A stretch of DNA of 45,482 nt from Anaerolineae bacterium (GCA_041497495.1 JBGQGR010000001.1:1-45482), one strand, 5' to 3'; counted from the stretch's first letter, positions 1 to 31,946 are shown. The notes: generated by a model not told the origin, from the sequence alone. Program-made: numbers and translations.

Positions 1-2435
1 GCAGTATTCGATCAGTTTTCATCTGGGGGATCAGCGCCACCGTTATCTTCATCGCGCTGACACCTTCAATGTGGACCGCTCCGATCGAAACATTGCAATA
101 TATCGCAGCGACGGCGCAGACTTTCGCCGCGACCCCCCACCACGTCAATTTCTTGCTGGGTAGTAATGATCTTGATCCCGGTCCGCTGTTTTATCCCACC
201 GTCATCGCGTTCCGCTCTACACCGGCTATGTGGCTGGGGCTTATCTCAGCGATATGGCTTATCACGCGGGCACAGTCACGGTCTGAACGCCGCTTACGGG
301 CTGCCTCATTCGTATTTTTATTCTTTGCAATTCTTTTCCTGGGATTAATCACGATCGGCGCCAAGAAACTTGAACGCTACAGCCTGCCGACCCTGGAAGG
401 GTTGAATATCACTGCGGCACTGGGTATCGAATACTCGATGACACGAATTCTTCAGCGCGCCACACGCCGCACGGCCGTTTTGTCCAACGCTCTAACGGGC
501 TTGTGTGTGCTGGCTGTCGCCAGCCAATTCCTGATGGTTTATCCATATACTTTCCGATCATATAATCCAGTCCTTGGCGGCTACCGCAATGCTGATCTGA
601 CTTTACGAGTTGGCGGTGATGAAGGCGGCGAAGTCGGCGCGGCCCTCAGGGCATCGCCCTACAACTCGAACAGCATTGCGCTGTCCGACTTGGTCGGTAT
701 TGCTCCATTTTTTGCGGGGAACCTGTATGCCGTCAATCTAGCCGGCTTCACGCATGCTGATTATTTTCTGTTCTCCACCCAAAATTTCAAACTAACCCCC
801 GACCTCCCTGCCCAATGGATCGGCGATGCAACACCGGTGATGACCATCACGGTGCAGGCGCAACCGTTTGCCTGGCTGTATCCCAATCCATGGCTGGCAG
901 CCGATCGGCAACGGTTGATCGATCAGCGCCAAGCCGGTGATGCACTGATCGTCGACGACACGGTTAATCTGCCACAGAATAGTACTGATCCAACAATTTA
1001 TCTGCCGAGTGATATGAGTGAGGCCGATGCACTGAATTTATTGACCGGCCTGGCCGCAGCCCATAGCCGGATCTTCGTCCTGCACTATACCGTCAGCCCT
1101 TCACACGCCACCAATCGGATCTTTCGATTGTTGGATATTTATGCGATCAGACTGGCTGACTGGTCAACACGCTTGGGCAGCGGCGCCTTATATGAATTGC
1201 CCCAACTATTTTCCTTCAACATCGAGCCTACCGCGCTGAAGGCCAGCGTTACCTTTGGTGATCGGCTGCAGCTCGATCAGGCTGATTTAATTTCAGCACA
1301 CATTCAACCCGGTCAATCCATTGGCGTGAGCACTTCTTGGTCAGCCAGTGGAGAGCCGGCGCAGGCGACCGTTACTCTTTCAGATGAAGCCGGCCATGAT
1401 TGGGGTGCCGGGGATGCTCAGGTGCCAATGAATACCTCGACTGCGCGCCGCATCTTGGTCGCCACGCCTTTGACGATTCCGCCCGGCCAGTATCGATTGA
1501 CACTGAATGTTACTGATGTAGACAGCGGTAATCCGATCGATTCCCGCCGCCCCGATGGATCTTTCGGCGGCTTCGGTTGGCTGCTCGGCATCATCACCAT
1601 CGATCCAGCGCACAAGCCGATCGACCCCGCCAGCCGCCGACCGCCGATTCTCATCAACGCGAATATCGGCGGCCTGCAAGCTATCGGCTCAGACCTGCCG
1701 CCCGATCCAGTGATCAGTGGTGATCCCTGGACGCTGTCGATGGAATGGGCCTCGACCACCGATCATTTGCCCACATTCGATATAAACTGGCTGGTCATGA
1801 AGAATGAGCAGATCGTTTACTCCACAACGATGCCGCTCAACTCATATCCCACCGCGGAATGGTACAACGGTGAAGTGATACAGAGCAAATACGATTTTCG
1901 TCTGCCCATCACACTGACCGCTGGCAAGTATGATCTTGATTTTCAGCTGCTTGATCAAGATCGTCGAGCGCTAATCGGATCCAAGCCAACCCACCTCACA
2001 TTGCTTCACATCCAATCGCGCAATCGCGATTTTGCGCCGCCAGCCGAAACTGAATATCCGATCGACGTAACGTTTGGCGGCTTCGTCCGCCTAGCTGGTG
2101 CAAATCTCGCACAGACCGATCAAGTCTTAACGGTGACATTGTGGTGGCAAGCCCAGCAAACTACCAGAAATAACTACACCACCTTCGTGCAGATCGTCGA
2201 TCCAAATGCTCAAATCGATCAACAGATCGACAGCTGGCAGCTGGGCGGGGACTTACCCACGAGCACATGGCTTCCCGGCCAACTTATTAGAGATCAGTAT
2301 GTATTCAAGCTGCCATCAACTGCTTATCAGATTGGAGTAGGCTTGTATAATGCAGGTAATGGACAACGCTTACCGGCAATCGCTTCAACCGGCACTCGGC
2401 TCGCTCAAGATCGAGTGCTGCTGACCCGACAATGA
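1..2435 (+). CDS. GT-C fold membrane glycosyltransferase-like protein (GT39/PMT_2-like), 5'-truncated by the window edge, with C-terminal repeat modules
   Basis: The frame of ORF 69..2435 stays open back to nt 3. The upstream residues SIRSVFIWGISATVIFIALTPSMW align with IRAFFIWGICASIVFFALYPAMW of the paralog at 5346..8495. The two are collinear throughout (LIDQRQAGDALI, GDPWTLSMEWAS, QSKYDFRLPIT, PTSTW...GLYNA). Confidence 0.85.
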   Translation, partial: SIRSVFIWGISATVIFIALTPSMWTAPIETLQYIAATAQTFAATPHHVNFLLGSNDLDPGPLFYPTVIAFRSTPAMWLGLISAIWLITRAQSRSERRLRAASFVFLFFAILFLGLITIGAKKLERYSLPTLEGLNITAALGIEYSMTRILQRATRRTAVLSNALTGLCVLAVASQFLMVYPYTFRSYNPVLGGYRNADLTLRVGGDEGGEVGAALRASPYNSNSIALSDLVGIAPFFAGNLYAVNLAGFTHADYFLFSTQNFKLTPDLPAQWIGDATPVMTITVQAQPFAWLYPNPWLAADRQRLIDQRQAGDALIVDDTVNLPQNSTDPTIYLPSDMSEADALNLLTGLAAAHSRIFVLHYTVSPSHATNRIFRLLDIYAIRLADWSTRLGSGALYELPQLFSFNIEPTALKASVTFGDRLQLDQADLISAHIQPGQSIGVSTSWSASGEPAQATVTLSDEAGHDWGAGDAQVPMNTSTARRILVATPLTIPPGQYRLTLNVTDVDSGNPIDSRRPDGSFGGFGWLLGIITIDPAHKPIDPASRRPPILINANIGGLQAIGSDLPPDPVISGDPWTLSMEWASTTDHLPTFDINWLVMKNEQIVYSTTMPLNSYPTAEWYNGEVIQSKYDFRLPITLTAGKYDLDFQLLDQDRRALIGSKPTHLTLLHIQSRNRDFAPPAETEYPIDVTFGGFVRLAGANLAQTDQVLTVTLWWQAQQTTRNNYTTFVQIVDPNAQIDQQIDSWQLGGDLPTSTWLPGQLIRDQYVFKLPSTAYQIGVGLYNAGNGQRLPAIASTGTRLAQDRVLLTRQ

Positions 2436-2475
2436 ATAGGCTATCTGCCTGTTCCGCTTGGCCCCGACTACTCTG

Positions 2476-3450
2476 ATGAAACTTGGCCGAATTCTCCGCG
2501 TCCTCATCAGCCTGATCATTCTGGCGATCGTCATTGCCAGCGTCGGCGCCGATCGATTGTTCGATGCGCTGCGCTCGATCAATCTCGGCTGGTTCGCGAT
2601 CGCGCTGTTGTTTCATATGATCGGCCTGATCGTCCGCACGTATCGCTGGTCGATCTTGATCAAAGCCTTAGGCACCCCGGTGTCTTTTGGTCGATTGTTG
2701 TACTTGTACTTAGCGGGCACATTCTTCAACACGTTTTTGCCGACCAACATCGGCGGCGATGTGGTGAAGATCATCGAACTCTCGTCGGATCGAGGCGGGG
2801 CGCAGGCGTTCAGCAGCGTGTTCGCCGATCGGTTGACGGGCATTCTGGGTTCGTCGTTGATCGCACTCGTTGTCGCCATCCTCGATCCGGCGGATGTGCC
2901 GTCGTATGTCGTGTTGACTGTGATTTTGATTTCAGCCGGAATTTTGATCGCTTCGTTCTTGTTGACCCAACGCCGTTTCTTCGAATGGATCGTTGCGCAC
3001 TTAAAATTCTGGCCGAAAGTCCCGGGCGTAAAGAAGATTCAGAAAGTTGCCGAAGCGGTAACTTCATATTCAATTGGCGCAATTGTGAGGGCGATGCTGG
3101 TCTCACTGCCTTTCACGCTAACATTGATCGCCACACAGTATGCCCTGGCGCTCGGTCTGGGCATCGATGCGCCGCTGCGCTACTTTGCGTTATTCGTACC
3201 GATCATTGCACTGGCTCAGCTAATACCCATTTCATTCAACGGCCTCGGCGTGCGCGAAGGAACCTATCAAGTTTTATTCGGCGCAGTTGGTGTCGATCAA
3301 GCTCAAGCGGTAGCCATATCGTTCATGTATTACATCGTGCGCGTCGTCGGCGGATTGTTCGGCGGGCTGCTATATCTGATCGGGAATTTGAAAACGAACA
3401 GCGACGAAAGACGAACGACGAACGAAGATGTGTCAATTGATCATGAGTAG
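2476..3450 (+). CDS. Flippase-like / LPG_synthase_TM (UPF0104) family polytopic membrane protein
   Basis: Multi-TM ORF with the family-typical RTYRWSILIKALG and FFNTFLPTNIGGDVVK motifs. The ORF track starts at TTG 2458, and I prefer the in-frame ATG at 2476 (MKLGRILRV...). The start is uncertain. Confidence 0.7.
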   Translation: MKLGRILRVLISLIILAIVIASVGADRLFDALRSINLGWFAIALLFHMIGLIVRTYRWSILIKALGTPVSFGRLLYLYLAGTFFNTFLPTNIGGDVVKIIELSSDRGGAQAFSSVFADRLTGILGSSLIALVVAILDPADVPSYVVLTVILISAGILIASFLLTQRRFFEWIVAHLKFWPKVPGVKKIQKVAEAVTSYSIGAIVRAMLVSLPFTLTLIATQYALALGLGIDAPLRYFALFVPIIALAQLIPISFNGLGVREGTYQVLFGAVGVDQAQAVAISFMYYIVRVVGGLFGGLLYLIGNLKTNSDERRTTNEDVSIDHE

Positions 3451-3530
3451 TTGGTCATTGGCCGTTCATCCTTGGTCACTCAGCATGTGTCATTGAGCCT
3501 TGTTCATTGTTAATTGATCATTGTTCATTT
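3430..3530. repeat. Tandem heptanucleotide array (about 14 units; TTGGTCA / TTGTTCA / TTGATCA variants)
   Basis: Read directly: GTGTCAA TTGATCA TGAGTAG TTGGTCA TTGGCCG TTCATCC TTGGTCA CTCAGCA TGTGTCA TTGAGCC TTGTTCA TTGTTAA TTGATCA TTGTTCA. It begins inside the last codons of the upstream gene and ends at a TATAAT box. Confidence 0.8.
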
Positions 3531-3535
3531 ATAAT
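3530..3535 (+). promoter_or_regulatory. Candidate -10 box (TATAAT) at the 3' end of the heptamer array
   Basis: Perfect TATAAT 26 nt upstream of ATG 3562. The same array-plus-TATAAT arrangement recurs at 27903..27908. I found no convincing -35. Confidence 0.3.
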
Positions 3536-3561
3536 CTGCTTCTCGCTAGGGAACTTACTGC

Positions 3562-5229
3562 ATGGCATTGAACCACAAAGCATTGATCATCGGTCTTGAC
3601 GGCGCAACGTGGACATTATTACGCCCGTGGATCGATCAAGGTCATTTGCCTAACCTCGCGCGTTTGGTTAACGAAGGCGCGTCTGGCCCATTGACGACCA
3701 CGATCCCGCCGGTGTCCGCCTCGGCCTGGGTGTCGTTTGCCACGGGCTGCAATCCGGGCAAGCATGGCGCGTTCGATTTTGTGTTTCCACAGCCGGGCGG
3801 TTACGATATCGGCGTGATCAATGTGAAGGTGCGCGGCGTGCCGCCGTTCTGGAAATCGATCGAAGAGGCGGGCGGGCAAGTGGGCTTGATGAGTGTGCCG
3901 ATCACGTATCCGCCGCAGCCGATCAACGGTTTCACGGTCAACGGTTTTCTGGTACCGAATGAACAATCGGCTTATACGTACCCACCCGAACTTAAAGAGG
4001 AGTTGAAGCACAATGGTCAGCGTTGGCCGCTGCACGAGTTCGAAGGCAATCGATCGCGTCATCCGGGACGCTTCTTGCAGGACATGCTCGACTTCGACGT
4101 GACGCGCACCGACACGATCGTGTGGTTGATGCAGCACAAACCGTGGGATACCTTGGCCTGTGTATTGAAGACACCGGATACCGTGCAGCATGAACTGTGG
4201 CACATCATCGATCCGACGCATCCGCGTTACGCGGCGGAACTCAATCGACAGTTCGCGCCGGCGGTGCTGGACTACTTCAAGAAGATCGATGAGTGCGTCG
4301 GCCGCATCATCGCCGCCGCGCCGCCTGAGACCTTCGCCGCCATCATGTCCGATCACGGCGGCGGGCCGTTCCACAAATTCTTTCACGTCAACAACTGGCT
4401 CGCTCAGCAGGGTCTATTGAAGTTTAAGCGCGCGCCGTTGAGTATGATCAAGCGCGCATTGTTCAAACTCGGCTTCACGCCGATCACTTCATTGAAGATC
4501 GTCAACTTGCTGCGCTTAGGCCGTTTGCGCAGAAGAGTGAAGCGCGGTCGAGGCCGCGGCATGTTGAAGCGCTTCTTCTTATCATTCGGCGATGTCGACT
4601 GGTCGCGCACCAACGCTTTTGCGGTCGGCAACTTCGGACAGATCTATATCAACTTGAAGGGCCAGCGTTCGCAAGGCATCGTCGAGCCGGGCGTGGAGTA
4701 CGAGGCCGTTCGGGATCAGATCATCCGATCGGCGTTAGCGCTGCGCGATCCGGACGGCGGCGATCAAGTGATCGCGGCAGTGTACAAGAAGGAAGAGTTG
4801 TATCACGGCGATCGAGTTCCGGTCGCGCCCGATCTGATCCTGCACACCGATCGATCCAAGTACGTTTCATTCGGCCACGCCGACTTCGGATCGAACAAAT
4901 TATTGGAGGCGAGCGTCGGCCAAACCGGACATCACACGATGGACGGCATCGTCGTCCTGCACGGCGAAGGCGTGCGGCCGAAGACCGGAATCAAAGGCAA
5001 TATCATCGACATTGCGCCAACGGTGTTGTATGCATTGGGACTGCCGATTCCAGCGATCATGGATGGACAAGTCATGCAATCGGCTTTCAGCGCTGAGTAT
5101 TTAGCCGCTCATCCCATCGTCCGGGCCGCCGCCGATGAGTCCGCTTCAAGCGGATCGACCCATGCGTATTCCGAAGAAGATGAAGCGCAGGTCATGGATC
5201 GCTTGCGCGAGTTAGGCTATGTAGCGTAA
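3562..5229 (+). CDS. Alkaline-phosphatase superfamily protein, type I phosphodiesterase / nucleotide pyrophosphatase (NPP)-like
   Basis: ATG start. The N-terminus ALIIGLDGATW...LPNL..L...G....L.TTIPPVSASAW.SFATG..PGKHG is typical of the Phosphodiest/NPP family, and a later DHGG block also fits. No signal peptide is obvious. Confidence 0.75.
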   Translation: MALNHKALIIGLDGATWTLLRPWIDQGHLPNLARLVNEGASGPLTTTIPPVSASAWVSFATGCNPGKHGAFDFVFPQPGGYDIGVINVKVRGVPPFWKSIEEAGGQVGLMSVPITYPPQPINGFTVNGFLVPNEQSAYTYPPELKEELKHNGQRWPLHEFEGNRSRHPGRFLQDMLDFDVTRTDTIVWLMQHKPWDTLACVLKTPDTVQHELWHIIDPTHPRYAAELNRQFAPAVLDYFKKIDECVGRIIAAAPPETFAAIMSDHGGGPFHKFFHVNNWLAQQGLLKFKRAPLSMIKRALFKLGFTPITSLKIVNLLRLGRLRRRVKRGRGRGMLKRFFLSFGDVDWSRTNAFAVGNFGQIYINLKGQRSQGIVEPGVEYEAVRDQIIRSALALRDPDGGDQVIAAVYKKEELYHGDRVPVAPDLILHTDRSKYVSFGHADFGSNKLLEASVGQTGHHTMDGIVVLHGEGVRPKTGIKGNIIDIAPTVLYALGLPIPAIMDGQVMQSAFSAEYLAAHPIVRAAADESASSGSTHAYSEEDEAQVMDRLRELGYVA

Positions 5230-5236
5230 AGTCCAC

Positions 5237-5319
5237 GTCATTGCGAGGGCGAAGCCCGAAGCAATCTCCCGATCGATCTTGAGATTGCTTCGTCGGCCTT
5301 ACGGCCGCCTCGCAATGAC
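5237..5319. repeat. Nested-palindrome REP/MITE-like element, copy A
   Basis: Outer inverted repeat GTCATTGCGAGG (5237-5248) / CCTCGCAATGAC (5308-5319). Inner inverted repeat CGAAGCAATCTC (5257-5268) / GAGATTGCTTCG (5281-5292). The same cores occur at 8509..8677 and 34590..34696. Confidence 0.85.
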
Positions 5320-5340
5320 ACCTACAAATTTTAGGTGTCA
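5316..5340. other. 9-bp hairpin TGACACCTA-(7 nt)-TAGGTGTCA just upstream of the TTG start at 5346
   Basis: Perfect inverted repeat read directly. It shares the TGACACCT arm with the inverted repeat at 18257..18305. Confidence 0.6.
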
Positions 5341-5345
5341 CCTAT

Positions 5346-8300
5346 TTGCAATCTCCTTCTTCGCCTCAGCGTTCTATCTCTCCAGCGCTCATTCTGCTCA
5401 GCAGTCTGATCTTTCTGCTCGCGCTTCTGGCGCGCCTCGGCGCGATCGATCGCTACGTCACGCCTGACGAGCTGCACTGGGTCGATCGATCGATCCGCTT
5501 CACCGATGCGGTTACGCATGGCAAGTGGGCGGACACGATCCAAAGCGGCCACCCCGGCGCGACGACAATGTGGCTCGGCTCGCTCGGCATCACGCTTCAA
5601 CATCTGAGCAATCCCGCCCTTCCACTGCCAAACACCTCGATCGATTTCTCTCCGCAAAACGCCGACGCGATGCGCGCGCTGGCAAAATTTCTTGACGCGG
5701 CACGACTGCCCGTTATTCTCGTCACTTCATTCAACATCACTTTGTTGTTCGTGCTGCTCAGCCGCAAGATCGATCGACGCGCGGCGTTTCTGGCCGCCGG
5801 ATTGATCGCGCTCGATCCATTTGGCGTCGCGTTGGGCAGCATTTTGCATGTCGATTCGCTTTTAGCGACTTTCAGCCTCGTTTCAATTGCAGCAGTGTTC
5901 ATTGCGATCGATCATCCACGACCGACACGCTGGTTGATCACATCGGGCGTGTTGGCGGGTCTGGCCGCACTGAGCAAATCACCCGCGATCGTTTTGGGGC
6001 CAATGACATTCATCATCCTCGCGATCAATGTTTGGCGGCAGCATCGATCGATCGGTCGCTTCATTCGAGCGTTTTTCATCTGGGGTATCTGCGCCTCGAT
6101 CGTTTTCTTCGCACTGTATCCGGCGATGTGGGTCAACCCGCTCACCGCGCTGGGCCGCATGGCCGCCACGGCTGAAAAGTTCGGTGAGCTCGCGCACGCG
6201 GTCAATTATTTCTTCGGCAGCCTCGATCGTAATCCCGGCCCACTGTTCTATCCCGTCGTCATTGCATTTCGATCGACGCCGATTCTCTGGGTCGGATTGA
6301 TCGCAATAGTCCCGTTGATCTTTCGGATGCGAACAAATATTGAGAAGAGTCTGCGCTCAAATGCCCTGCTCTATTTTCTGTTTGTAATCTTGTTCATTGG
6401 GCTGATCACGATCGGCGCGAAGAAACTCGATCGCTACTTGTTTCCGGCTTTGTTGGCACTAGATATCATCGGTGCGATGGGGCTGGCTTACGCGATCGGG
6501 TCGATCACCGATCGGTTAAAGAATCGATCGAGAGTTGCAACATTGATCGCAATTGGAGCCTGCTTCGCCATCGCCTCGATCCAATTCATGGACGTGTGGC
6601 CGCTGACCCTTCGAGCATACAATCCGTTATTGGGCGGATATAACGGTGCGAGCCGCGCACTGCCCGTCGGTGGCGGCGAAAGCGCAGAAGTAGGTGAAGC
6701 ATTAGCTGCATCAGCCTTCGCGTCAAAAGTAATTGCAGTCAGCGACATCGTCGGCACCGCACCATTCTTTCCGGGCAAGTTAGTGCCGAACGACGAAGCG
6801 GGTCTTGCGCGCGCCGATTATTTGTTGTTCAACGCATCAGATTTTCAACTCACGCCCAGTGTGCCGAAACAATGGATCGGATCAGCGTCGCCCGTGATGA
6901 CGTTCACCGTGCAGAATCAAAATTTCGCGTGGTTGTATCCAAATCAATGGCTGGCTGTCGATCGACAGCGTTTGATCGATCAACGCCAGGCAGGCGATGC
7001 ACTCATCACCGATTATGCGGCGGCGCTGCCCACTCAATCGGATGATCCGACGATTGTGTTGGCGGAAGACATCAGCGAAGCGGCTGCGATCGATCGCTTG
7101 AATCGCGTGGCTCAATCGCATTCGCGCATCTTCTTCATTCATTACGCGACCAGCCGCGATCCGACGAGCATTGTGGTGACCCGCCTGCTCGACACATTTG
7201 CGATCAAAGTGAATGACTGGTCATCGCCATTGAGCAGCGGCGCGTTGTATGTGCTGCTGAAAAATATTTCGTTCAAGGCTGAACCGACAGAATTGAACGC
7301 CAACGCGACATTTGGCGATCGAGCGCAATTGGCGCAAGCGCAACTTGTTTTGTCGCACGTGCAGCCCGGCCAATCGATCGGCTTGAACACCCAATGGATT
7401 GCCTCACTACCTGAATCACAATTGTTCGTGTCGCTGATCGATGATCGAGGTCACACGTGGAACCAGATCGATGATCGCGTGCCCGCCAGCGACAGCGGCA
7501 ACACGCAGCGCGCCAAGCGCCTCAGCCTGCCCGTGCCGCCTGTCACGCCGCCAGGCATTTATCAATTGAAGCTAAACGCCATCGATCTGGCGAGCGGCGG
7601 TCCGCTCAGCATTCAATCTGCGGACAATCATTTCGCCGGATTCGATTGGCTGCTGGGCTCGATCACAATCGATCCGGCACAGGTACAGATCGATCCCGCC
7701 ACACGCCAGCCCGCGATCGAGATCGATACCGATCTCGGCGGTCTGCATGCGATCGGATCGGATGCGCCGCCCGATCCGATCATAAGCGGTGATCCGTGGA
7801 CGTTGTCGATGGAATGGGCGTCAGGTGTAGAACACTTGTCGAACTTAGATGTTGCGTGGCTGTTGGTTTCAAACAATCAGATCGTTTACTCGACCACGCT
7901 GTCGCTTAACTCTTATTCGACCGATCATTGGCGCAGAGGTGATGTGCTGCAAAGCAAATATGATTTCCGTTTGCCGATCACGATCACTGCTGGCAAATAC
8001 GATCTCAAATTTAAGTTAGTCGATCATCTAACTAACCAGGCCTGGCATGCACAAGCCGTGCAACTGACATCCGTGAATCTGTCATCACGCCCGCGAGATT
8101 TTACTGCCCCAACGGTTCAATATCCAAGCGACGTTCAATTTGGCTCGATGGCAACTCTGCTCGGCGCGAACGTGCTTCAGTCCGATCAAGTATTGACCGT
8201 CACTTTGATCTGGCAGGTGAATCAGATCACGACGACGAATTACAGCACCTTCGTGCAAATCATCAACGGCGAACAAGTCGTCAAGCAGATCGATAACTGG

Positions 8301-8495: not shown

Positions 8496-8508
8496 AATCA
8501 ATTCCCTT

Positions 8509-8677
8509 CGTCATTGCGCGCGCAGTCCCTAGATGGCCCAGCCCCTAGGGATGTGCCACGAAGCAATCTCCACGACAATTAATTGAGATTGCTTCGTCGC
8601 GTCCTTCGGCTCCGCGCTACGCGCTCCGCTCAGGATGCTCACCTGCCCTGCGCGCCTTATGCAGGGTCGCAATGACG
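8509..8677. repeat. Nested-palindrome REP/MITE-like element, copy B (long variant)
   Basis: Outer CGTCATTGCG (8509-8518) / CGCAATGACG (8668-8677). Inner CGAAGCAATCTC (8559-8570) / GAGATTGCTTCG (8585-8596). The right arm GATGCTCACCTGCCCTGC...GCAGGGTCGCAATGACG is the reverse complement of the left arm of copy C. Confidence 0.85.
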
Positions 8678-8688
8678 GTTTAGGCTTT

Positions 8689-11931: not shown

Positions 11932-11951
11932 GCCTCTTTACTGATGATTCA

Positions 11952-15125: not shown

Positions 15126-15128
15126 CTA

Positions 15129-18356: not shown

Positions 18357-18366
18357 CGGCCATTTG

Positions 18367-18948
18367 CTATTTGGCGCGCGATCGCTGCACGAACATGCCC
18401 GCCATGAACCCGGCGACCAGCAAAATAATCACGCCCAAACCACCCAGCGCAATTCGACCTAACGTCGACGGGCCACCACTACCGCCAGCCGCTGAGCTCG
18501 ACGGCGCGCCGGTGTTGCCGCTGGCGGGCTCGCTCGGCGCGGACGAATCACCGCCAATCTTCTGCGCGCCGTACTTCGCATCGAACTGCGCGCCGCTCGC
18601 CAAGCTGATGGCCCATTGGCCTTCTGTCGTAGATTCATAACCGATCGGCGCTTTCGCCCGAACCGTATATGAACCCGCCGCTAACTTTCCAAAACAGTAC
18701 GGCTCACTCACGCCATCAGTCGAGTACGAGCCCATCACCCCGCTGTCATCCGATAACGTAAAGCCCACACCCGCTAATGATTTTTCATCGGCATCACGTG
18801 CCGCGTTGCCGTTCGTATCATCAAAGGCCTGTACACACACTTGGCCGTTCGTTTGTTGCAGCTGCGGCGCCGCTGAGGCGACTCCGGCCAGACTGCTCAA
18901 CAGCAACAGCATCATGATCGCTGCGCCGATCCGTCGGATAAGCTGCAT
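18367..18948 (-). CDS. Secreted, membrane-anchored SdrD-B-like (Cna-B-type) domain protein
   Basis: Signal peptide MQLIRRIGAAIMMLLLLSSLAGVASA. Domain CVQAFDDTNGNAARDADEKSLAGVGFTL...TDGVSEPYCF..L..GSYTV. Gly/Ser-rich spacer, C-terminal TM helix and basic tail (QRSRAK). Confidence 0.75.
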   Translation of the reverse strand: MQLIRRIGAAIMMLLLLSSLAGVASAAPQLQQTNGQVCVQAFDDTNGNAARDADEKSLAGVGFTLSDDSGVMGSYSTDGVSEPYCFGKLAAGSYTVRAKAPIGYESTTEGQWAISLASGAQFDAKYGAQKIGGDSSAPSEPASGNTGAPSSSAAGGSGGPSTLGRIALGGLGVIILLVAGFMAGMFVQRSRAK

Positions 18949-18971
18949 TATCTGCTCCTTTGCAAAATTAT

Positions 18972-20465
18972 TTAGGCGCGGCGTCGGGCGATGATGAATG
19001 CGCCCAACACTCCGGCCACCAGCAAGACGGTCAGACCGATGCCGCCCAACAACAATCCCGATAGGTTCGATCCGCCTGACCCAGCGGCCGGCGTCGGCGA
19101 CGCATCCACTCGGCTGCCAAAGCGAATGTTCACCGTCGAGCCGCCGGTCAACGACACACTCCAGCGTTTATCGGACGTTGCGACTGTATTCGGCGCGGGC
19201 TGGACCGCCACTGAATATGTGCCGGGCACCAAGTTATCGAAGCAGTGCGGAGTCGAGCTGCCATCCGCCGTATAAGTTGAAACTTGCTCGCCACTTTGTG
19301 AGTTCGATACGGTGAACTGCACACCGGCCACCGCTTGTTCACCGGACGTCAACAAGCCATCTGCATTCGTGTCGTCGAAGGCTTGCACGCACAACTTGGC
19401 CGTGACGACTTCCGGCGTCGCAGTCGGCGCGGCCGTCGGCGGAGCCTCGGGGGTTGTCGAGGTGGGCGCGGCGGTGGGTGCCGCCGGACCGGTCGGGCCA
19501 CGAATGATGATCTTTTGTCCGATCGACAACAGCGCATCTTTAGTAAGATTATTCAACGCCAGAATTTGATCGAGCGAAACATCATACGCGATCGATAAGG
19601 CGAACAATGTGTCACCCGATTGGATCGTATGCACGATCGAACCATCCGGATTCGGCGTACTGATCACCGAGGGCAGCGGCGCGACAGGTGGTGCTGCTGG
19701 CGCACTGGTCGCTTGTGCAGGTGGTGCGCCGGGCGCTGCAGTTGATGCGGTTGAAGCACCGACTATCGTCAACGCAGCATCATCCCACCAGGCATCCAGG
19801 TGCGTGGCTGCACTCCCACGATAATCGTTGGAGGTGAAGACCGTCACTTTGCCACCAGAGCCCACTGTGGCTTGAACACAAAGTTGCTGCCAGGTATCAT
19901 GTGGGTTAGCCGTACCAGACCACGTGACGCCGGAAGCCCAATTGTCGCCGCCGTTTGGATCAATACCGACACGCGCATTGCCACTCATGGATGAAATGGA
20001 ACCTTCCTTACCATATGCTGCGTTATTGGCAAACAACCGCGCATAAGCGCAGAACTGCACAACACTGCCTGCCGGAATGTTCGGCACTGTCTGCTTGATG
20101 CCGGCCATCCACGGATCTTGTTGATAGCCGATGTGCTGCGAAGCGGCACCAGCATGGATCAACTCCGGATAACTTCCAGATAGATTCTCCTCAGCGCTAA
20201 AATTTGCCTTAGCGGTGTAGGTCAAGGCAGTAGCATCATCCGGTTTGGGAACCACATAATACCAACAGCTCCAGCCACTGGCCACCTTGCCGGCGCCGCA
20301 GCCCGAATACGGCTGTTCCATCCCCGGACTTTGCAGCAAATTACCAGATTGTGAAAGGCGTGCAGCTTGGGCTGAATTAGGCATTAGGCTGAACAGCATC
20401 ATTAACGCCAGTGCGAACACTCCGACCAGGGCAAGCCCCTTGCGCGGGGTCAATTTGAACTCCAT
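18972..20465 (-). CDS. Secreted surface protein: CBM-like jelly-roll + LysM + SdrD-B-like domain + C-terminal anchor
   Basis: Signal peptide. N-terminal module opening NLLQSPGMEQ and ending VGIDPNGG...VTVFT...WWDDAALTIV. Pro/Ala/Thr linkers. LysM (HTIQSGDTLFALSIAYDVSLDQILALNNL). A CVQAFDDTNADG... domain. Tail GGSNLSGLLLGGIGLTVLLVAGVLGAFIIARRRA. AAGGAG Shine-Dalgarno upstream. Confidence 0.8.
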   Translation of the reverse strand: MEFKLTPRKGLALVGVFALALMMLFSLMPNSAQAARLSQSGNLLQSPGMEQPYSGCGAGKVASGWSCWYYVVPKPDDATALTYTAKANFSAEENLSGSYPELIHAGAASQHIGYQQDPWMAGIKQTVPNIPAGSVVQFCAYARLFANNAAYGKEGSISSMSGNARVGIDPNGGDNWASGVTWSGTANPHDTWQQLCVQATVGSGGKVTVFTSNDYRGSAATHLDAWWDDAALTIVGASTASTAAPGAPPAQATSAPAAPPVAPLPSVISTPNPDGSIVHTIQSGDTLFALSIAYDVSLDQILALNNLTKDALLSIGQKIIIRGPTGPAAPTAAPTSTTPEAPPTAAPTATPEVVTAKLCVQAFDDTNADGLLTSGEQAVAGVQFTVSNSQSGEQVSTYTADGSSTPHCFDNLVPGTYSVAVQPAPNTVATSDKRWSVSLTGGSTVNIRFGSRVDASPTPAAGSGGSNLSGLLLGGIGLTVLLVAGVLGAFIIARRRA

Positions 20466-20545
20466 CTTCTTCTTCTCCTTATTGTAAATCGTGTCGATGC
20501 GATGATTTGATCATAAATGATCTGCTTTTGATAATTGCTACTGAA

Positions 20546-22075
20546 TCAGAAATACTTGACTGTCTGTGATTGTTTGCGCCGCCACATGAAAATTCCCAAG
20601 GCGGCGATGATGATCAATGCACTTGCCCCGATCAGCAGCTCAGGCGGAATGACCCCACTGGCCGGATCGATCTGCAGCCCCAGCGCAATATCGACCGTGG
20701 CATCGCTAGTCAAGGCCACCGCCCAACTCCGCGATCCGCTGATCGAATAACCGCTCGGCGTTTGCGCGGCTACCCGATAGACCGTGGCCGGCAAATGATC
20801 GAAGCAGGCTTGATCGGCAGAACCGTCGAGCGTGCGATCAACGATCGGGCTGCCGTTGCTATCGGTGACATCGATCTGCAGGCCGGCCACGGTCAACGCT
20901 TGATCGCTGTCCGATCGCAGGCCGTCCCGATCGACATCATTAAACGTGCGCACGCAAATGCTGCCCTGGCCTGAACCCGATCCGCCGATGGCTGTGAGCG
21001 GCCGCGCTGCCGTGTTGATGGGCGGCAGTGAGATGACCAGCTCGCGCCCAAGCTCCAGCTGCGATTCGGCGGATAGGCCGTTCAACTGCATGATCTGATC
21101 GACCGGGACGCCATATTGCAAGGCAATGGCGAACAATGTGTCGCCGCTTCTAACGATGTGCGTGATCTTGCCACTGCGGCCCGGCTCGGCAGTAGGCTGT
21201 GCCCCCACTGCCACAACTACCGGCGGCGGATTGACGACGATCGGCACGCTTGCCCCGCCGCCGATCAGCGTCAACTCGGCGTCGTCCACGTACACGTCGT
21301 TGTGTTCCATGGGAAATTCCGGGCGGCTGTGCGTGAACACCGTGACTTTGCTGGATCGGGCAACCGCTTCAACTTCAAAGCGTGTGAATTGATCATACGC
21401 TTCATGCTCAGTCGACCAGACAATATCTTTGCTCCATGGATCGTTGCCGCCTGTTGGATCGATCCCCACCCGCAGGTGCATGCTGCTCTGCCCAAAAGAG
21501 AAATGCGGGTTCGGTTCACCCTCGCCTGCTTTTGATGCAGACCAGACTTCCATGTAAATGCTGAAGCGCAGCAAACTGCCGGGGCGAACACCGGTTACCG
21601 TTTGATACACGCCCGCTTCGTGCACGCTCCAAAAGGTAAAATATTTTTGCGAGTTCTCGCCGGATCGAATGCGCGGCGGATCTTGCGGCGCATTGCGCGT
21701 GTCGCGATATTCCGGGTTATGCCAGGCGACGCAGCCATCCGGCGCACTGCGCCCGCAGTAATTCGGATATTGGTAATAATCGGGCGCCTGGCGATCGCTG
21801 CTGGGTATTTGCCACCAGCCCTGCCAGCCCTCTGCCACTTGAACCGTCTGCCACGGCACCGTCGGCAGCGATCCATCGCAGGGCAAGGTCATCCACGGAC
21901 GCCCGCCGGGAAAGCTGCATTGAATATGATAATCGCCTTCAAAACCCGGGTTCGCCAACAAATTTTTGGAACTTTGATCTGATCGCGCCGACAACGTCTC
22001 AGCCACCACGATCGTCGATGACATCAGCGCCAAGCCCACCATCGCGATCGCGATCGAAATCCGCTGCGGCTTCAT
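20546..22075 (-). CDS. Secreted surface protein: Cys-rich CBM-like jelly-roll + LysM + SdrD-B-like domain + C-terminal anchor
   Basis: Signal peptide. NLLANPGFEGDYHIQCS...CVAWHNPEYRD...RVGIDPTGGNDPWSKDIVWS...VYVDDAEL. LysM (HIVRSGDTLFAIALQYGVPVDQIMQLNGL). A CVRTFNDVDRDG... domain. C-terminal TM plus WRRKQ. Confidence 0.8.
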   Translation of the reverse strand: MKPQRISIAIAMVGLALMSSTIVVAETLSARSDQSSKNLLANPGFEGDYHIQCSFPGGRPWMTLPCDGSLPTVPWQTVQVAEGWQGWWQIPSSDRQAPDYYQYPNYCGRSAPDGCVAWHNPEYRDTRNAPQDPPRIRSGENSQKYFTFWSVHEAGVYQTVTGVRPGSLLRFSIYMEVWSASKAGEGEPNPHFSFGQSSMHLRVGIDPTGGNDPWSKDIVWSTEHEAYDQFTRFEVEAVARSSKVTVFTHSRPEFPMEHNDVYVDDAELTLIGGGASVPIVVNPPPVVVAVGAQPTAEPGRSGKITHIVRSGDTLFAIALQYGVPVDQIMQLNGLSAESQLELGRELVISLPPINTAARPLTAIGGSGSGQGSICVRTFNDVDRDGLRSDSDQALTVAGLQIDVTDSNGSPIVDRTLDGSADQACFDHLPATVYRVAAQTPSGYSISGSRSWAVALTSDATVDIALGLQIDPASGVIPPELLIGASALIIIAALGIFMWRRKQSQTVKYF

Positions 22076-22088
22076 TCAACCACTCACT

Positions 22089-24353
22089 TTAAGCGATCGC
22101 CCGGCGGCGCTGCAGGATGATCCAGCCGCCGATGCCGAGTACTGCGCCGATGATCAATAACCCGATCGTTCCGGTGGCGTCTGCTGGGGCAGCCGGCTTC
22201 GCTTCGCTTGCGCGGCTGCCGAAATTTACATTGACGGTCGCGCCGCTGTCCAGCGTCACACTCCAGCGTCGATCGGATGTAGCGATCATGCCGGCTGGTG
22301 TTTGAATCGCGACGGAATAGTTGCCCGGCGCGAGTTTATTGAAGCAATGCGGCTCGCTGATGCCGTCGGTCGAATAAGATGTGAGCTGTTTACCCTGCGC
22401 ATCATATAACATGAACATCGCTCCGCTGAGCAGCACTTCGCTCGATGTGTAGACACCGTTCGCGTCCACGTCGTTGAAAGCGCGCACACACAACTGCGTC
22501 GCCTCCGGCGCGGCCGCCACTTGTTCCGGTGTAGGCGTAGCCGCGATCGTCGGCGCGGGCGTGGCCTCGGGCGTCGCCGTTGCGATCGACGCGGAGATGA
22601 CCAACTCGCGGCCGATGACGATAAAGGAATCTTTGGTCAAACCGTTCAATTGCAGAATCTGATCCATCGGCACATTATACTGCAAAGACAACCCGAACAG
22701 AGAATCGCCGGGTTTGACCGTGTGGACGACTGAACCATCAGGATACGGCGTGGCCGTGGGGCCGGGCGCGTAGTTGATGATGGCCGGCGGCGCGGGATTA
22801 TTGTTCGACACGGGCGGCGCGCCGATCGGCTGATCCGGAACTTGAATCGCCACCAGTTCGGCATCGTCCACATACACATCGTTGTGCTTCAAGCCTTTTT
22901 CCGGCATGCTGTGCGTAAACACCGTCACGTGATCCGATTGGGCAGTCGCGCGCACTTCGTAATAGCCGAAGATATCGTAGCTGTCATGTTCGGCCGACCA
23001 GACGATGTTCGGACTCCACGGATCATCGCCGCCGGTCGGATCAATACCGACCCGCATGTGCATGCTGGTCTGCCCGGATGAGTTGAAAGAGGCAGGATCG
23101 AGATCGCTGCCGTCTTGGTTGGACGACCACGCGTGCATATACACGCCGAAGCGCAGCACACTGCCCGGCGGAACATTGACCGTTTGGAATACACCGGCTT
23201 CATGCACGCTGTAGAAGGTGAAATATTTTTGCGAGTTCTTGCCGGAATGAATCCGCGCTGGGCCTGAGATCGTGCCCTTCGTGTCGCGGAATTCAGGATT
23301 GTGCCAGGCAATGCAGCCTTCGGGCGCATCCGAATAACAATTGTTGGGATGATTGGAATAGAACTTTGGATCCGTGCCGTGTTTGGTATTGGGCTCCAAC
23401 CACCACGCCGTCCAGCCAATGGGCACCTGCACCGTGTTCCAGATGAAATTAATGTGCCGACCTTTCTCGTCTTTCGCATCCAAATCCAGGCCGTCACATG
23501 AAACATGCCGCCACGGCACATCCGCAATGGTGCTGCATGGAATATAGAGCTTGCCTTCAAAGCCGCCATCGGTCAGTAAATTCGTGCCCACTTGCACACT
23601 GGCCGGCGTGGGCGTCAGAACAATTGGCACAGGCGTGGCCGTAGGATAGGATGCTTGAGCCGTTGCGGCCAGATCGCCGCTGAGCACCGTCAACGCAGCA
23701 TCATCCCAATACACTTCATTGTTGCGCCGTGAATCGAACGGGTTCGCATACGTGAAAACCGTGACGGTGGTATTTTGCGATCGGGCAAAGACGGAGAACT
23801 GATACCACGAATCGAGTATATTGAGTGGCTGCGTCCAGACAACATTCGGGCTTTTCGGATTTGTGCCGCCGGTCGGATCGATGCCAATCTTCATCTGCAT
23901 ATTGGTGCCGCCGACCGAGATATTGATCGGATCGTTGCTTTGCGATGACCAGCCTTGACCGTAAATCGAAAACTGTAGATCGACATTCAACGGAACGGTC
24001 ACTTGTTGATAGATGCCCGCTTCGTACGCGCCGAAGAAGTGGAACATGCGCTGCGCATTGCCGCCGCCGTGAATGCGATGATCACAGCCTTTGGTGCAAG
24101 TATTACTCGGACTGTAATTCGGCTGCAAGTAGGCCCATTCCGGCGCATTGGCCGGATGCGGCGTCCACCACGCCGACCAACTAGTCGCCACCTGCGCATC
24201 CGCATTGATCTGTGTGAAGCCCGCCTCAAAATTTGGATTCTTTAAGAGGTTCGAGCCCGCGGCAGAACTCGGCGAGGCTTGAACGTTCAACGGAAGTAAC
24301 GCCACCGCGAACGAGAATATTAAGCTAAGAATCAAGAAACGTTTCAGTTGCAT
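22089..24353 (-). CDS. Secreted surface protein: two CBM-like jelly-roll modules + LysM + SdrD-B-like domain + C-terminal anchor
   Basis: Signal peptide. Two modules opening NLLKNPNFEAG and NLLTDGGFEG, each ending ...GIDPTGG...VTVFT...DDA.L. LysM (HTVKPGDSLFGLSLQYNVPMDQILQLNGL). A CVRAFNDVDANG... domain. Tail IGLLIIGAVLGIGGWIILQRRRAIA. Confidence 0.8.
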   Translation of the reverse strand: MQLKRFLILSLIFSFAVALLPLNVQASPSSAAGSNLLKNPNFEAGFTQINADAQVATSWSAWWTPHPANAPEWAYLQPNYSPSNTCTKGCDHRIHGGGNAQRMFHFFGAYEAGIYQQVTVPLNVDLQFSIYGQGWSSQSNDPINISVGGTNMQMKIGIDPTGGTNPKSPNVVWTQPLNILDSWYQFSVFARSQNTTVTVFTYANPFDSRRNNEVYWDDAALTVLSGDLAATAQASYPTATPVPIVLTPTPASVQVGTNLLTDGGFEGKLYIPCSTIADVPWRHVSCDGLDLDAKDEKGRHINFIWNTVQVPIGWTAWWLEPNTKHGTDPKFYSNHPNNCYSDAPEGCIAWHNPEFRDTKGTISGPARIHSGKNSQKYFTFYSVHEAGVFQTVNVPPGSVLRFGVYMHAWSSNQDGSDLDPASFNSSGQTSMHMRVGIDPTGGDDPWSPNIVWSAEHDSYDIFGYYEVRATAQSDHVTVFTHSMPEKGLKHNDVYVDDAELVAIQVPDQPIGAPPVSNNNPAPPAIINYAPGPTATPYPDGSVVHTVKPGDSLFGLSLQYNVPMDQILQLNGLTKDSFIVIGRELVISASIATATPEATPAPTIAATPTPEQVAAAPEATQLCVRAFNDVDANGVYTSSEVLLSGAMFMLYDAQGKQLTSYSTDGISEPHCFNKLAPGNYSVAIQTPAGMIATSDRRWSVTLDSGATVNVNFGSRASEAKPAAPADATGTIGLLIIGAVLGIGGWIILQRRRAIA

Positions 24354-24447
24354 TCAAACACCTTCAAAGTCGATATGACATCCGAAGTATACAGGATCTC
24401 ATTTTTCGGCACGCTAACTTTGCGCGGGTCAACGTAATGTCAACTCA

Positions 24448-26439
24448 CTATGGCCCCACCGCATTCGGGCCGCCCAACAAAATCGCTCGATCGATCACGG
24501 CCTGCGCGGATTCGATCACTTTCACTCGCTGGCCGGTCGATCGATTGTATACGCCCATTTCGATCAGCAGCTGAACCCGATCGGCTTGAGCTGGCAACTC
24601 GATCGTTCGCTGATCGATGACAACATCCCCTACCCGCCACAAGCTCGCCGGATAAAAGCCAGCGCCGCTATCACCATCGACCGAAACAACCAACTGATTA
24701 TTCAACAACAAATGAACAAAGAAAGTTTCATCACTGCTTTGCGATTGATCTGCCATCCACAACGTTCTCAACCGCCAATGCCCCTCGTCAAGCACTTCGA
24801 TCGAATGGCCGAGCAGCCGCAGGCCATTCGCAAACTGCGCCTCAGTGAGACTCGACGTTGATTGCTTCGGATCGATCTGCACGCGCAAGTAACCCACATG
24901 CGGCTGCGGATCGAGATCGCCTTGTGCCATCGGCCCCGCCGAGACTTGCAGCGTGAGCGGCCCCGGCAGAGTGGCGAATGATTTTGAAAAATCTTCGTAC
25001 GGCCAGACGAATAATATTGCCGACCGCGCCGGATCGATCGATGCTTGGCCGCCATCGGGAATCGTTTGATAGTCGCCGCTCAGCAAAAACGAAACGCTCG
25101 CCCAATCACGAATGAATCGATCGGCGATGAAGACTTGCCTGTTGGACAAGAGGTCATCTTGCGCGACTCTGGCTAATTCTGTGCCTGCCACTTCAAACGC
25201 ATTCGCCGTTTCAGGATCGATCGCATATTGACTGTAATCGCGCACGGTCAACACGCCTGCCATGATGATCACCGCACTCATCATACCGAGGCCGATCAGT
25301 CTCGATCGCGTTTCGATCCATCTGCCGACCAGATCGAGTCCAATCGCCGGAATGATCATCACTACCGGCAAGATGCCAACGACGCGCAAGAAGTGCGGCG
25401 AGTCTTCGGCTAAGATCGTGGGCAGCAGCATCACCGCGACCCATAAGAGCGTGAAGAGTGATGATAGCTTATTTACCGCTGAGGGCGCGGAGAAAATTTT
25501 CTTAGAACTCAGCGAACTCCGCGTGCTTTGCGGTAGGATGGCTACAACTAAGCAAATCAATCCGACTACAAAAAAGATCGCCGAGATCGGATCGAAGACC
25601 GGCCGATAAGGCACGTTGTGGCGCGGGATGCGATCGCCCTGCCAGAAGAACATGCCCAACGCTTTGAGCGTGCTGCTCACTGCCGTGCCGACAAAATCGC
25701 CGTGATTGATGCCGCTGCTGAAGATCGATATTTCGCCGGGGCGGCCCATGACCACGTCCCACTCATTTGCCGCCGTGATCGCCAACGGCGCAATCACCAA
25801 GGCCGCCGCCGCGATAAAGAGCAGCACGTTCGGCCATAAGCGGCGGGAACGTTGAGCCGCGATCAAAACCATCGAGAAAGCAAGCAAAGCCGCGGGCGTA
25901 AATCGAGCAGCCAGATAGGTGTAAAATGAAGCGCCGTACACCAGGCCGGCGATAATCCAAGCGCGCCGCCGGTTCGATCGATACGCGCGCATGCCCAGCG
26001 CGATGAACAGTGCAATGAACAGCGGCAGACTGACGGCGCGCAAACCGATGTGGCTGAGATGAATCGGCCAGAGCGTCACCGTCATGATCGCCGCGCTCAG
26101 AAAGCCGACGCGTCGATTGAAAAGTTCGCGCGCCAGCCAATAAGTGGCCGGGATTGTTAAAGTGCCAATCAGCGCCGCAGGCAAGCGCAGCGCGATCACG
26201 CTGCGACCAAACAAGCTGACGCTCAACGAAACCAAATAAATGAAAAACGGTTCGCGCCCGTTGTTGGCCGCAAAGTACCACGGATGATCGCCGCCCAGCA
26301 CGCGCAGCGCGTCCAAGCCGTTGAAGGCTTCATCGTGATATAAGCCGGGCGGCCACGCGCCGAGCTGATACAAACGTAAAGCCCCAGCCAAGAGCATCAA
26401 CCCAATGACCGGGGCCCATTCCTTAAAGATGCGTTGCAT
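24448..26439 (-). CDS. GT39 / ArnT-PMT_2-like GT-C membrane glycosyltransferase with one C-terminal repeat module
   Basis: The ORF track extends to 26679, overlapping the divergent gene. The in-frame ATG at 26439 gives MQRIFKEWAPVIGLMLLAG...LYHDEAFNGLDA, the first-loop DE motif typical of ArnT/PMT-like GT-C enzymes. Many TM helices. The C-terminal module is ETFFVHLL...YPASLWRVGDVV...MGVYN..TGQRV. Confidence 0.8.
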   Translation of the reverse strand: MQRIFKEWAPVIGLMLLAGALRLYQLGAWPPGLYHDEAFNGLDALRVLGGDHPWYFAANNGREPFFIYLVSLSVSLFGRSVIALRLPAALIGTLTIPATYWLARELFNRRVGFLSAAIMTVTLWPIHLSHIGLRAVSLPLFIALFIALGMRAYRSNRRRAWIIAGLVYGASFYTYLAARFTPAALLAFSMVLIAAQRSRRLWPNVLLFIAAAALVIAPLAITAANEWDVVMGRPGEISIFSSGINHGDFVGTAVSSTLKALGMFFWQGDRIPRHNVPYRPVFDPISAIFFVVGLICLVVAILPQSTRSSLSSKKIFSAPSAVNKLSSLFTLLWVAVMLLPTILAEDSPHFLRVVGILPVVMIIPAIGLDLVGRWIETRSRLIGLGMMSAVIIMAGVLTVRDYSQYAIDPETANAFEVAGTELARVAQDDLLSNRQVFIADRFIRDWASVSFLLSGDYQTIPDGGQASIDPARSAILFVWPYEDFSKSFATLPGPLTLQVSAGPMAQGDLDPQPHVGYLRVQIDPKQSTSSLTEAQFANGLRLLGHSIEVLDEGHWRLRTLWMADQSQSSDETFFVHLLLNNQLVVSVDGDSGAGFYPASLWRVGDVVIDQRTIELPAQADRVQLLIEMGVYNRSTGQRVKVIESAQAVIDRAILLGGPNAVGP

Positions 26440-26535
26440 ATTTCGATTTTCGATTAATGTAGGGGCGAGCTGATCACTCCATTTGCCAAAGCGGGAAAAG
26501 TATAACACAATAGGCGCGCGCGGCAAAGCCGCGCT

Positions 26536-26618: not shown

Positions 26619-26626
26619 GGAATACT

Positions 26627-27724: not shown

Positions 27725-27805
27725 AGCAGGCTGCAGGCTGCAAGTTGCATAACACATGATGCGTTACTCACACCTGCACTGTAACGCACGCAGTGCGGTG
27801 CAAGT

Positions 27806-27908: not shown

Positions 27909-27914
27909 CGCCGC

Positions 27915-29054: not shown

Positions 29055-29055
29055 C

Positions 29056-31926: not shown

Positions 31927-31946
31927 CTACGTGTATCGACCCAAAC

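Follow-up and report, generated by a model that had tools for sequence, protein, structure and literature searches.

The window analysed here is the whole 45,482-nucleotide stretch JBGQGR010000001.1:1-45482 of assembly GCA_041497495.1 (Anaerolineae bacterium), a chromosomal contig of a metagenome-assembled genome of Anaerolineae-type Chloroflexota whose GC content is even throughout, at about 0.52-0.60. Within positions 1..26439 it holds a tightly packed array of six large membrane proteins of the glycosyltransferase C (GT-C) type, which is the subject of this work together with the genes interspersed with it. Six paralogous open reading frames (ORFs) had been listed for this region in an earlier note on the same DNA, and all of them were recovered at essentially the same places by the ORF map, which was drawn from the translation of the window and whose coordinates are positions in the whole stretch. 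On the plus strand, G1 (3..2435) is open at the window edge, as the earlier note had indicated, and corresponds to the C-terminal 810 amino acids (aa) of a PMT_2-type protein that reaches 1,062 aa on the contig of a sibling assembly. It is followed by an MprF-type flippase-like membrane protein (G2, 2458..3450), an enzyme of the alkaline phosphatase (AlkP) superfamily (G3, 3562..5229) and three further GT-Cs, namely the ArnT/PMT_2-like G4 (5346..8495; 1,049 aa), the PMT_2-type G5 (8635..11931; about 1,090 aa) and the PTPS_related-type G6 (11952..15125; 1,057 aa). The minus strand carries the G6 paralog G7 (15129..18356; 1,075 aa), a small exported SdrD_B protein (G8, 18367..18948), an exported LysM/SdrD_B wall protein (G9, 18972..20465), its LysM-containing paralog G10 (20546..22075), a third paralog with LysM and SdrD_B domains (G11, 22089..24353; 754 aa) and the PMT_2-type GT-C G12 (24448..26439; about 663 aa). 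G2, G3 and G8-G11, all of them inside 1..26439, had been left out of the earlier note.

Intergenic gaps across G1..G12 measure only 3-163 nucleotides (nt), which fits with co-transcription. G6 and G7 are convergent, with stop codons 3 nt apart, and the minus-strand genes run in the order G12-G11-G10-G9-G8-G7, separated by 94, 13, 80, 23 and 10 nt. With G8-G11 enclosed by G12 and G7 at spacings of 10-94 nt, these six genes likely form one transcription unit, of which G12 is the first gene. Scans for promoters and terminators yielded no more sites than expected by chance in 1..20000, and the 15 sites found in 18000..33000 (8.9 +/- 3.3 expected, about 2 standard deviations above chance) were not used as evidence; promoter-like sites are present in the gap between G12 and the divergent gene G13.

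Families, fold and shared repeat of the GT-C proteins

Two gene starts allow more than one reading. The longest ORF of G5 begins at 8635, the publicly annotated gene on the sibling contig starts at the equivalent of window position 8659, and 8689 is another in-frame start. The longest ORF of G12 reaches 26679; in the closest relative (L084) the ortholog has 666 aa, which favours the 663-aa start at 26439.

At the family level, the proteins fall into two subfamilies, one PMT_2/ArnT-like (G1, G4, G5 and G12) and one PTPS_related/YfhO-like (G6 and G7), and this division, already drawn in the earlier note, is borne out alike by Pfam, BLASTP, profile-profile comparison and Foldseek. BLASTP gives 54% identity between G1 and G4 over 812 aa, 31% between G4 and G5 over about 1,060 aa and 28% between G6 and G7 over about 1,040 aa. 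Against Pfam gathering cut-offs of 26.1 bits for PMT_2, 22.7 for PMT, 26.4 for PTPS_related and 28.5 for YfhO, PMT_2 is passed by G4 (55.8 bits), G5 (51.9) and G12 (57.9), while PMT is passed by G4 (26.3) and G5 (33.8) and G12 stays below it (20.9). The window fragment of G1 lacks the PMT_2 domain, and its full-length counterpart P0037 on the sibling contig carries PF13231. Only P0037 and P0045 have G1 as their best match among 240 homologs, so that on sequence comparison G1 is a lineage-restricted extra paralog of G4, that is, a recent duplicate or extra copy. In the other subfamily, G6 passes PTPS_related (PF10131) with 49.0 bits over model positions 1-307 and G7 falls just short of it with 22.1 bits. 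The YfhO part of the affiliation proposed in the earlier note did not hold in the same way, since the cut-off of YfhO (PF09586) is missed by G7 (19.2 bits, model positions 770-822 only) and G6 has no match to this model at E<=0.01; among the more distant G6 homologs, some do have PF09586. PTPS_related is listed in the Pfam GT-C clan CL0111 with function unknown (PMC7801869), and no characterised member was found in the literature. Weak matches were also obtained for G5 to Wzt_C (Pfam, E 2.4e-4, under the cut-off) and for the C-terminus of G7 to PgfM1 (NCBIfam, E 2.5e-5, 22.5 bits versus a cut-off of 1400).

The fold was addressed with AlphaFold2 (AF2) models of G4 and G6, each built from an alignment of 62 homologs and with high confidence (predicted local distance difference test, pLDDT, of 92.8 and 90.5, respectively). 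G4 is modelled with about 11 transmembrane helices, an alpha/beta domain at about 460-640 and then three beta-sandwich repeats. Its best structural match in Foldseek is ArnT (5f15, E 1.8e-7), and it also matches Pmt4 (9i5k, target TM-score 0.62), AglB, ALG9, ALG12, STT3 and AftA. The G6 model has about 11 transmembrane helices, a beta domain, two more transmembrane helices and again three beta-sandwich repeats; its whole-protein search is swamped by beta-sandwich matches (complement C3 MG domains, RbmA), and the sole GT-C found is AftD (6wbx, 6w98) at E of about 2e-6 and a low TM-score. In profile searches of the PDB the G4 family retrieves only ArnT (E 0.002), with no Emb, and the G6 family retrieves nothing meaningful. 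Hydropathy is consistent with these models, with 8-11 hydrophobic segments in the five full-length GT-Cs and 3 remaining in the truncated G1. When the two families are compared profile to profile, they align with a probability of 100 over their full length and, with the transmembrane part alone, at E 5.9e-5 over 294 columns, and both subfamilies are homologous to each other by this criterion. Taken together, Pfam, the AF2 models of G4 and G6, Foldseek and the profile comparison establish the six window proteins as GT-C type: searches that could have placed them in membrane families other than glycosyltransferases returned PMT_2, PTPS_related and ArnT-type fold matches instead.

The motifs quoted in the earlier note were located in the paralogs: YVTPDE at residue 37 of G4 and residue 50 of G5, YHDEA at residue 114 of G12 (long-ORF numbering), YPRWFPD at residue 67 of G6, and PFFNY at residue 81 of G6 and residue 121 of G7. 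The first-loop acidic residues D41/E42 of YVTPDE reach a conservation of 90% or more across 62 G4/G5-type sequences, and D46 is invariant in 62 G6-type sequences. The exact position of this D46 is lacking from G7 in a three-sequence alignment, in which the equivalent position is uncertain.

A further feature, which had escaped the earlier note, is a beta-sandwich repeat of about 110 aa that a local hidden Markov model finds in three copies in G1, G4, G5, G6 and G7 (in G5 at 684-789, 833-935 and 974-1080) and in one copy in G12 (614-721, long-ORF numbering), so that the same C-terminal repeat module is present on both GT-C subfamilies. Its database matches are faint (Wzt_C under cut-off, RbmA and MG-type folds); Wzt_C and RbmA are glycan-binding folds. 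The large extracytoplasmic C-terminal domains described in the earlier note are thus seen as beta-sandwiches in the AF2 models, and their location outside the membrane is predicted from helix counts.

Two other assignments were considered and rejected. Membership of the Emb family (GT53) finds no backing, as no Emb-family Pfam model is matched at E<=0.01 by any of the six proteins; from the Emb-like layout put forward in the earlier note only the architectural analogy is left. An oligosaccharyltransferase of the STT3/PglB/AglB type was discarded because no paralog has the WWD motif (WWDxG); archaeo_STT3 matches reach 17-20 bits versus a cut-off of 450, and the AglB match concerns the general fold only.

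Partner genes and distribution across Chloroflexota

G2 matches Pfam LPG_synthase_TM (148 bits, E 5.5e-43) and the NCBIfam flippase-like domain TIGR00374 (90.7 bits versus a cut-off of 43.2), has about 9 hydrophobic segments and is syntenic in L002-L004, L006, L007 and L084, loci of related genomes; it is a candidate translocase for a lipid-linked sugar. G3 matches PF01663 (Phosphodiest, 132.6 bits), under the database label 'predicted AlkP superfamily phosphohydrolase/phosphomutase', and contains no signal peptide, transmembrane segment or N-terminal hydrophobic segment. Around residues 290-345 it carries a conserved, strongly basic insertion (RLGRLRRRVKRGRGRG...). In a PDB profile search, PhnA and NPP match G3 only in the N-terminal metal/nucleophile region, the catalytic core. 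Relatives conserve G3 at 84-94% identity, compared with 54-76% for their GT-Cs.

The region upstream of the window edge is covered by L083, a contig of the sibling assembly, in the order GT2, seventh GT-C, DUF3800, second AlkP-superfamily enzyme (L083 5560-7221) and full-length G1. The GT2 (L083 948-2042) gives end-to-end alignments to both ArnC (2e-63) and PgfS (3e-45), and a GT2 also heads the array in L002. The seventh GT-C (L083 2100-4631) is split into two ORFs of 126 and 716 aa, its counterpart in L002 being intact with 859 aa; about 30 residues are missing at the junction, which points to a frameshift or pseudogene, or else to a misassembly. The DUF3800 gene (L083 4669-5241), with the seventh GT-C on one side and the second AlkP gene on the other, is absent from that position in L002, which suggests a small insertion.

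The four paralogous exported proteins G8-G11 are bracketed by G12 and G7. G8 is composed of a signal peptide, an SdrD_B domain (41.3 bits), a Ser/Gly/Ala-rich linker and a C-terminal transmembrane anchor, and is kept in L084. In G9 a signal peptide and an N-terminal domain are followed by Pro/Thr/Ala-rich linkers, LysM (45.9 bits), SdrD_B (38.1 bits), a C-terminal transmembrane helix and a basic tail, and an ortholog with a P/A/Q-rich linker comes after G7 in L004. G10 (LysM 52.1 bits, weak SdrD_B, C-terminal transmembrane anchor) is 44% identical to G11, which has a duplicated N-terminal domain, LysM (48.5 bits), SdrD_B (36.5 bits) and a C-terminal anchor. The C-termini of all four, with a Gly/Ser-rich stretch, a transmembrane helix and a basic tail, resemble a sorting signal. 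That of G11 marginally passes LPXTG_anchor (17.7 versus 15.9 bits, with the sequence PADATG), and the tails of G8, G9 and G10 matched no known C-terminal sorting-signal model.

Divergently from G12, a priming-transferase/GT4 module occupies the plus strand. It consists of the cytoplasmic GT4 glycosyltransferase G13 (26582..27724; Glycos_transf_1, 125 bits), which resembles HpsO with 284 bits, under the cut-off of that model, a second GT4 (G14, 27894..29054; Glycos_transf_1, 117.7 bits) and G15 (29397..30830), a polyprenyl glycosylphosphotransferase of the WcaJ/WbaP type, that is, a priming enzyme, assigned by Bac_transf (223 bits), CoA_binding_3 and TIGR03025 (443 bits versus a cut-off of 295.55).

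Regarding its distribution, the array is closest to that of L084, in which the GT-Cs are 71-76% identical and the order from the AlkP enzyme through G12 is the same, without G1. L002-L004, at about 55% identity, keep the GT2 (seen in L002), a GT-C, AlkP, the flippase-like gene, AlkP, G4, G5 and G6, and G7 with the LysM/SdrD_B genes is kept in L002 and L004. The core order G4-G5-G6-G7 holds down to about 55% identity. When one genome per species was scanned, relatives of G6 turned up at no fewer than 489 loci, and the best 80 of these are all from Chloroflexota, with labels such as Thermoflexales, Anaerolineales, Ardenticatenaceae, Promineifilaceae and Thermoflexus. Neighbourhoods were counted in 45 G6-like loci of at least 20 kb, with LysM/SdrD_B neighbours sought by BLAST. 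Within 10 kb there are at least two large GT-Cs in 22/45, at least three in 10/45 and at least four in 4/45 of these long loci. The most frequent neighbour of G6-like genes is a G3-like AlkP gene, found within 10 kb in 21/45, followed by the flippase-like gene (10/45) and LysM/SdrD_B genes (2/45). Related genomes differ in the number and combination of their GT-Cs, with 1 to 5 of them at a locus. Searching 1.84 billion cluster representatives with a profile retrieved 8,963 proteins at E<=1e-30; these roughly 9,000 clusters at 50% identity are an upper bound for the GT-C family, as partial matches are counted, and the best 150 of them all score above 669 bits, most spanning the full profile.

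The array is therefore a common lineage trait in Chloroflexota, with partial versions widespread. The density of paralogs had struck the earlier note as unlike any described cluster. No paper describing the array or the G6-type family was found in the literature on Chloroflexi together with GT-C, GT39, GT83 or ArnT or in that on PTPS_related, and to that extent the impression stands; multi-GT-C arrays around G6-like genes are nonetheless common in this phylum, as the survey of related genomes demonstrates. The locus is accordingly common but without a characterisation in the literature, its components being of known kinds and their combination and family architecture undescribed.

Possible functions of the array

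The array probably builds or decorates a cell-envelope glycan or glycoprotein outside the membrane. In known three-component systems a GT-A enzyme, a flippase and a GT-C act in succession, and large GT-Cs carry carbohydrate-binding domains for the acceptor (PMC8035078). The gene context described above, as read from sequence, fits extracytoplasmic glycosylation from a polyprenyl-phosphate sugar, because an ArnC/PgfS-like GT2, a flippase-like protein and a priming transferase with two GT4s are co-located with the GT-Cs. What is unusual with respect to this logic is the number of GT-Cs, the type of flippase and the presence of AlkP partners. Of the specific functions considered, the one favoured, with a probability of roughly 45%, is the stepwise assembly or elaboration of an envelope glycan outside the membrane from one polyprenyl-phosphate sugar. 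It is preferred because a single donor synthase is seen for seven transferases, because all the GT-Cs share one module of an acceptor-binding type, because the priming transferase and two GT4s adjoin the array, and because the family is widespread without LysM genes. In such a pathway the GT2 would load a monosaccharide onto polyprenyl phosphate at the inner membrane face, and the cytoplasmic AlkP enzymes, perhaps associated with the membrane via their conserved basic insertion, may process the lipid-linked intermediate or its precursor. The flippase-like protein would then move the lipid-linked sugar outward. There, an envelope glycan started on polyprenyl diphosphate by the priming transferase and the GT4s would receive sugars from each of the GT-Cs, every enzyme having its own linkage or position. 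The growing polymer may be held by the triple beta-sandwich that these enzymes share, and the four LysM/SdrD_B proteins may anchor or organise the product at the peptidoglycan.

Several observations weigh against this reading. Both the GT2 and the seventh GT-C fall beyond the window edge and are known only from L083 and L002, and the window showed no Wzx, Wzy, ABC exporter or LCP ligase. The priming transferase/GT4 module, which is not seen beside the array in L004, may belong to a separate pathway. In addition, G2 is not of the GtrA type and its proposed role comes from its domain family alone, the part assigned to the AlkP enzymes is a guess, and G6 is matched to a solved GT-C only weakly, in a search dominated by beta-sandwich domains.

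The acceptor could instead be the co-operonic wall proteins. It is possible, if rather doubtful, that some or all of the GT-Cs O-glycosylate the Pro/Thr/Ala/Ser-rich linkers of the four LysM/SdrD_B proteins from a polyprenyl-phosphate donor, in parallel with Pgf of Streptococcus mutans, GtrB/PgtC2 of other streptococci and actinobacterial Pmt. The wall-protein genes are enclosed by G12 and G7 in one minus-strand unit, an arrangement identical in L084 and partly kept in L004 and L002, and their products combine signal peptides and C-terminal membrane anchors with linkers such as APTAAPTSTTPEAPPTAAPTATPE. The similarity of the upstream GT2 to PgfS, the faint resemblance of the G7 C-terminus to PgfM1 and the PMT-type first-loop DE motif of G4, G5 and G12 point in the same direction. 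These linkers are, however, as Ala/Pro-rich as they are Ser/Thr-rich, seven GT-Cs far exceed any known protein O-glycosylation system, and the adjoining WcaJ/WbaP-type priming transferase and GT4s are indicative of a lipid-linked oligo- or polysaccharide. Moreover, the rarity of LysM/SdrD_B neighbours (2/45 long G6-like loci) implies that the general function of the family is independent of these proteins, and when set against the frequency of the AlkP partner (21/45) it argues for a general envelope acceptor. Stepwise glycan assembly and O-glycosylation of the wall proteins are not mutually exclusive, and two further explanations are less likely than either of them.

According to one of these, which is unlikely, each GT-C independently adds a single side-chain sugar to a different envelope polymer, be it a peptidoglycan-linked polysaccharide, a glycolipid or a protein, as the GT-A/GT-C pairs of Lactococcus or Listeria do, and the clustering only reflects a shared donor. 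Known bacterial PMT_2- and YfhO-type GT-Cs are indeed mostly single-sugar decorators (PMC8035078), the GT-Cs diverge far more rapidly than the AlkP enzyme, and the variable complement of 1 to 5 GT-Cs per locus, with G1 as a recent duplicate, recalls the modular gain and loss typical of surface-variation genes. Yet the C-terminal repeat module common to all six suggests one acceptor class, the G4-G5-G6-G7 core keeps its order down to about 55% identity, and only one donor synthase is seen for the seven transferases. It is highly improbable, finally, that some paralogs are inactive and serve as GT-C-fold scaffolds binding glycans or lipids, or as translocase-associated factors such as the 'flippase activity-associated protein Agl23' family. 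G4 and G12 do give weak matches to TIGR03663 (Agl23), but these stay far under the cut-off (35 versus 126 bits). In G7 the exact D46 position is missing from the three-sequence alignment and Pfam scores are under cut-off, whereas first-loop acidic residues are invariant or nearly so in both subfamilies, the models are of high confidence and their fold matches that of active enzymes.

In its logic the locus is nearest to the Aft/Emb set of mycobacteria and corynebacteria (AftA-EmbC-EmbA-EmbB, AftB, AftC and AftD, which use decaprenyl-phosphate arabinose), while in sequence and fold it is nearest to ArnT/PMT_2 enzymes. Like the Aft/Emb set it clusters several large GT-Cs that carry beta-sandwich domains of a carbohydrate-binding type (here predicted to lie outside the cytoplasm), many transferases apparently draw on one lipid-phosphate sugar donor, a priming transferase is found nearby together with cytoplasmic glycosyltransferases, and AftA and AftD appear among the Foldseek matches. 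In contrast, its proteins match no Emb-family Pfam model, its C-terminal module consists of three copies of a distinct repeat of about 110 aa, and its donor synthase is an ArnC/PgfS-like GT2, mycobacteria using a different donor pathway. The array further includes AlkP-superfamily enzymes, an MprF-type flippase-like protein and LysM/SdrD_B proteins, and its host belongs to the Chloroflexota. Since the mycobacterial aftA-embCAB region with the nearby aftB holds about five GT-Cs, the six or seven of the present locus are dense but not of a different order.

The logic of a GT2, a flippase and a GT-C is shared with CsbB/GtcA/YfhO, GtlA/GtcA/GtlB, GtrABC and ArnC/ArnEF/ArnT (PMC8035078). G4, G5 and G12 are of the PMT_2 type like GtlB and ArnT, and the G6 family borders YfhO. 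These systems nevertheless rely on one GT-C instead of six to seven and on a GtrA or ArnE/F flippase instead of an MprF-type domain protein, and the GT-Cs of the array are about twice as large as ArnT and GtlB, owing to added domains. With the Pgf system (PgfS, PgfM1, PgfE and PgfM2) and GtrB/PgtC2 the array has in common a PgfS-like GT2, more than one GT-C and the linkage to genes for wall-associated surface proteins with low-complexity linkers. It differs in that the PgfM1 match is weak and C-terminal only, no epimerase gene was seen, the GT-Cs are far more numerous, and the candidate substrates are LysM/SdrD_B proteins instead of collagen-binding adhesins. Within PTPS_related, the match of G6 covers only the N-terminal half of the model, and the triple repeat lies outside it.

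For the outer layers of the envelope of Chloroflexota, polysaccharide or protein whose composition is unknown has been described, and it is still a matter of debate whether one membrane or two are present in these bacteria (PMC13319060). To this question the locus contributes a conserved gene set, made up of a lineage-wide GT-C family of about 1,050 aa, a fixed AlkP-superfamily partner and wall-binding proteins. If it builds a wall polymer, it would represent a second, independent case of extracellular assembly in the arabinan style; should the LysM/SdrD_B proteins be its targets, GT-C-dependent protein O-glycosylation would be extended to another phylum. The PTPS_related family would also be given its first function. 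A bolder proposal, which is improbable as a whole, is that the array makes one of the non-membrane layers, of undefined chemistry, in this multilayered envelope, as a polymer formed outside the membrane by seven GT-Cs from a single polyprenyl-phosphate sugar, with a hitherto undescribed processing of the lipid-linked donor by AlkP enzymes and LysM/SdrD_B tethering to peptidoglycan, and that it would constitute an independently arisen functional analogue of arabinan or mannan.

Adjoining ORFs and housekeeping genes

Next to the priming module, a small hydrophobic ORF of 103 aa (29056-29367) between G14 and G15, with only sub-threshold Pfam matches, could encode a small membrane partner or be no gene at all. 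The ORF at 30622-31926, with a high content of Ala, Leu and Arg, matches nothing in Pfam or NCBIfam; its TTG start overlaps the end of G15, and the true start is probably near 30883. The interval from 32 to 45 kb contains the housekeeping genes rplL, rplJ, rplA, rplK, nusG, tRNA-Trp, tuf, fusA, rpsG, rpsL and rpoB. On its minus strand (40710-45241) rpoB is followed by rpsL, rpsG, fusA and tuf with no rpoC between rpoB and rpsL, in contrast to the usual rpoB-rpoC arrangement. Rfam and tRNA scans returned only the tRNA-Trp, outside the glycosyltransferase locus. Between tuf and this tRNA lies an ORF of 203 aa (35928-36539) with weak HTH_23 and MerR matches, whose stop end overlaps the tRNA by 2 nt.

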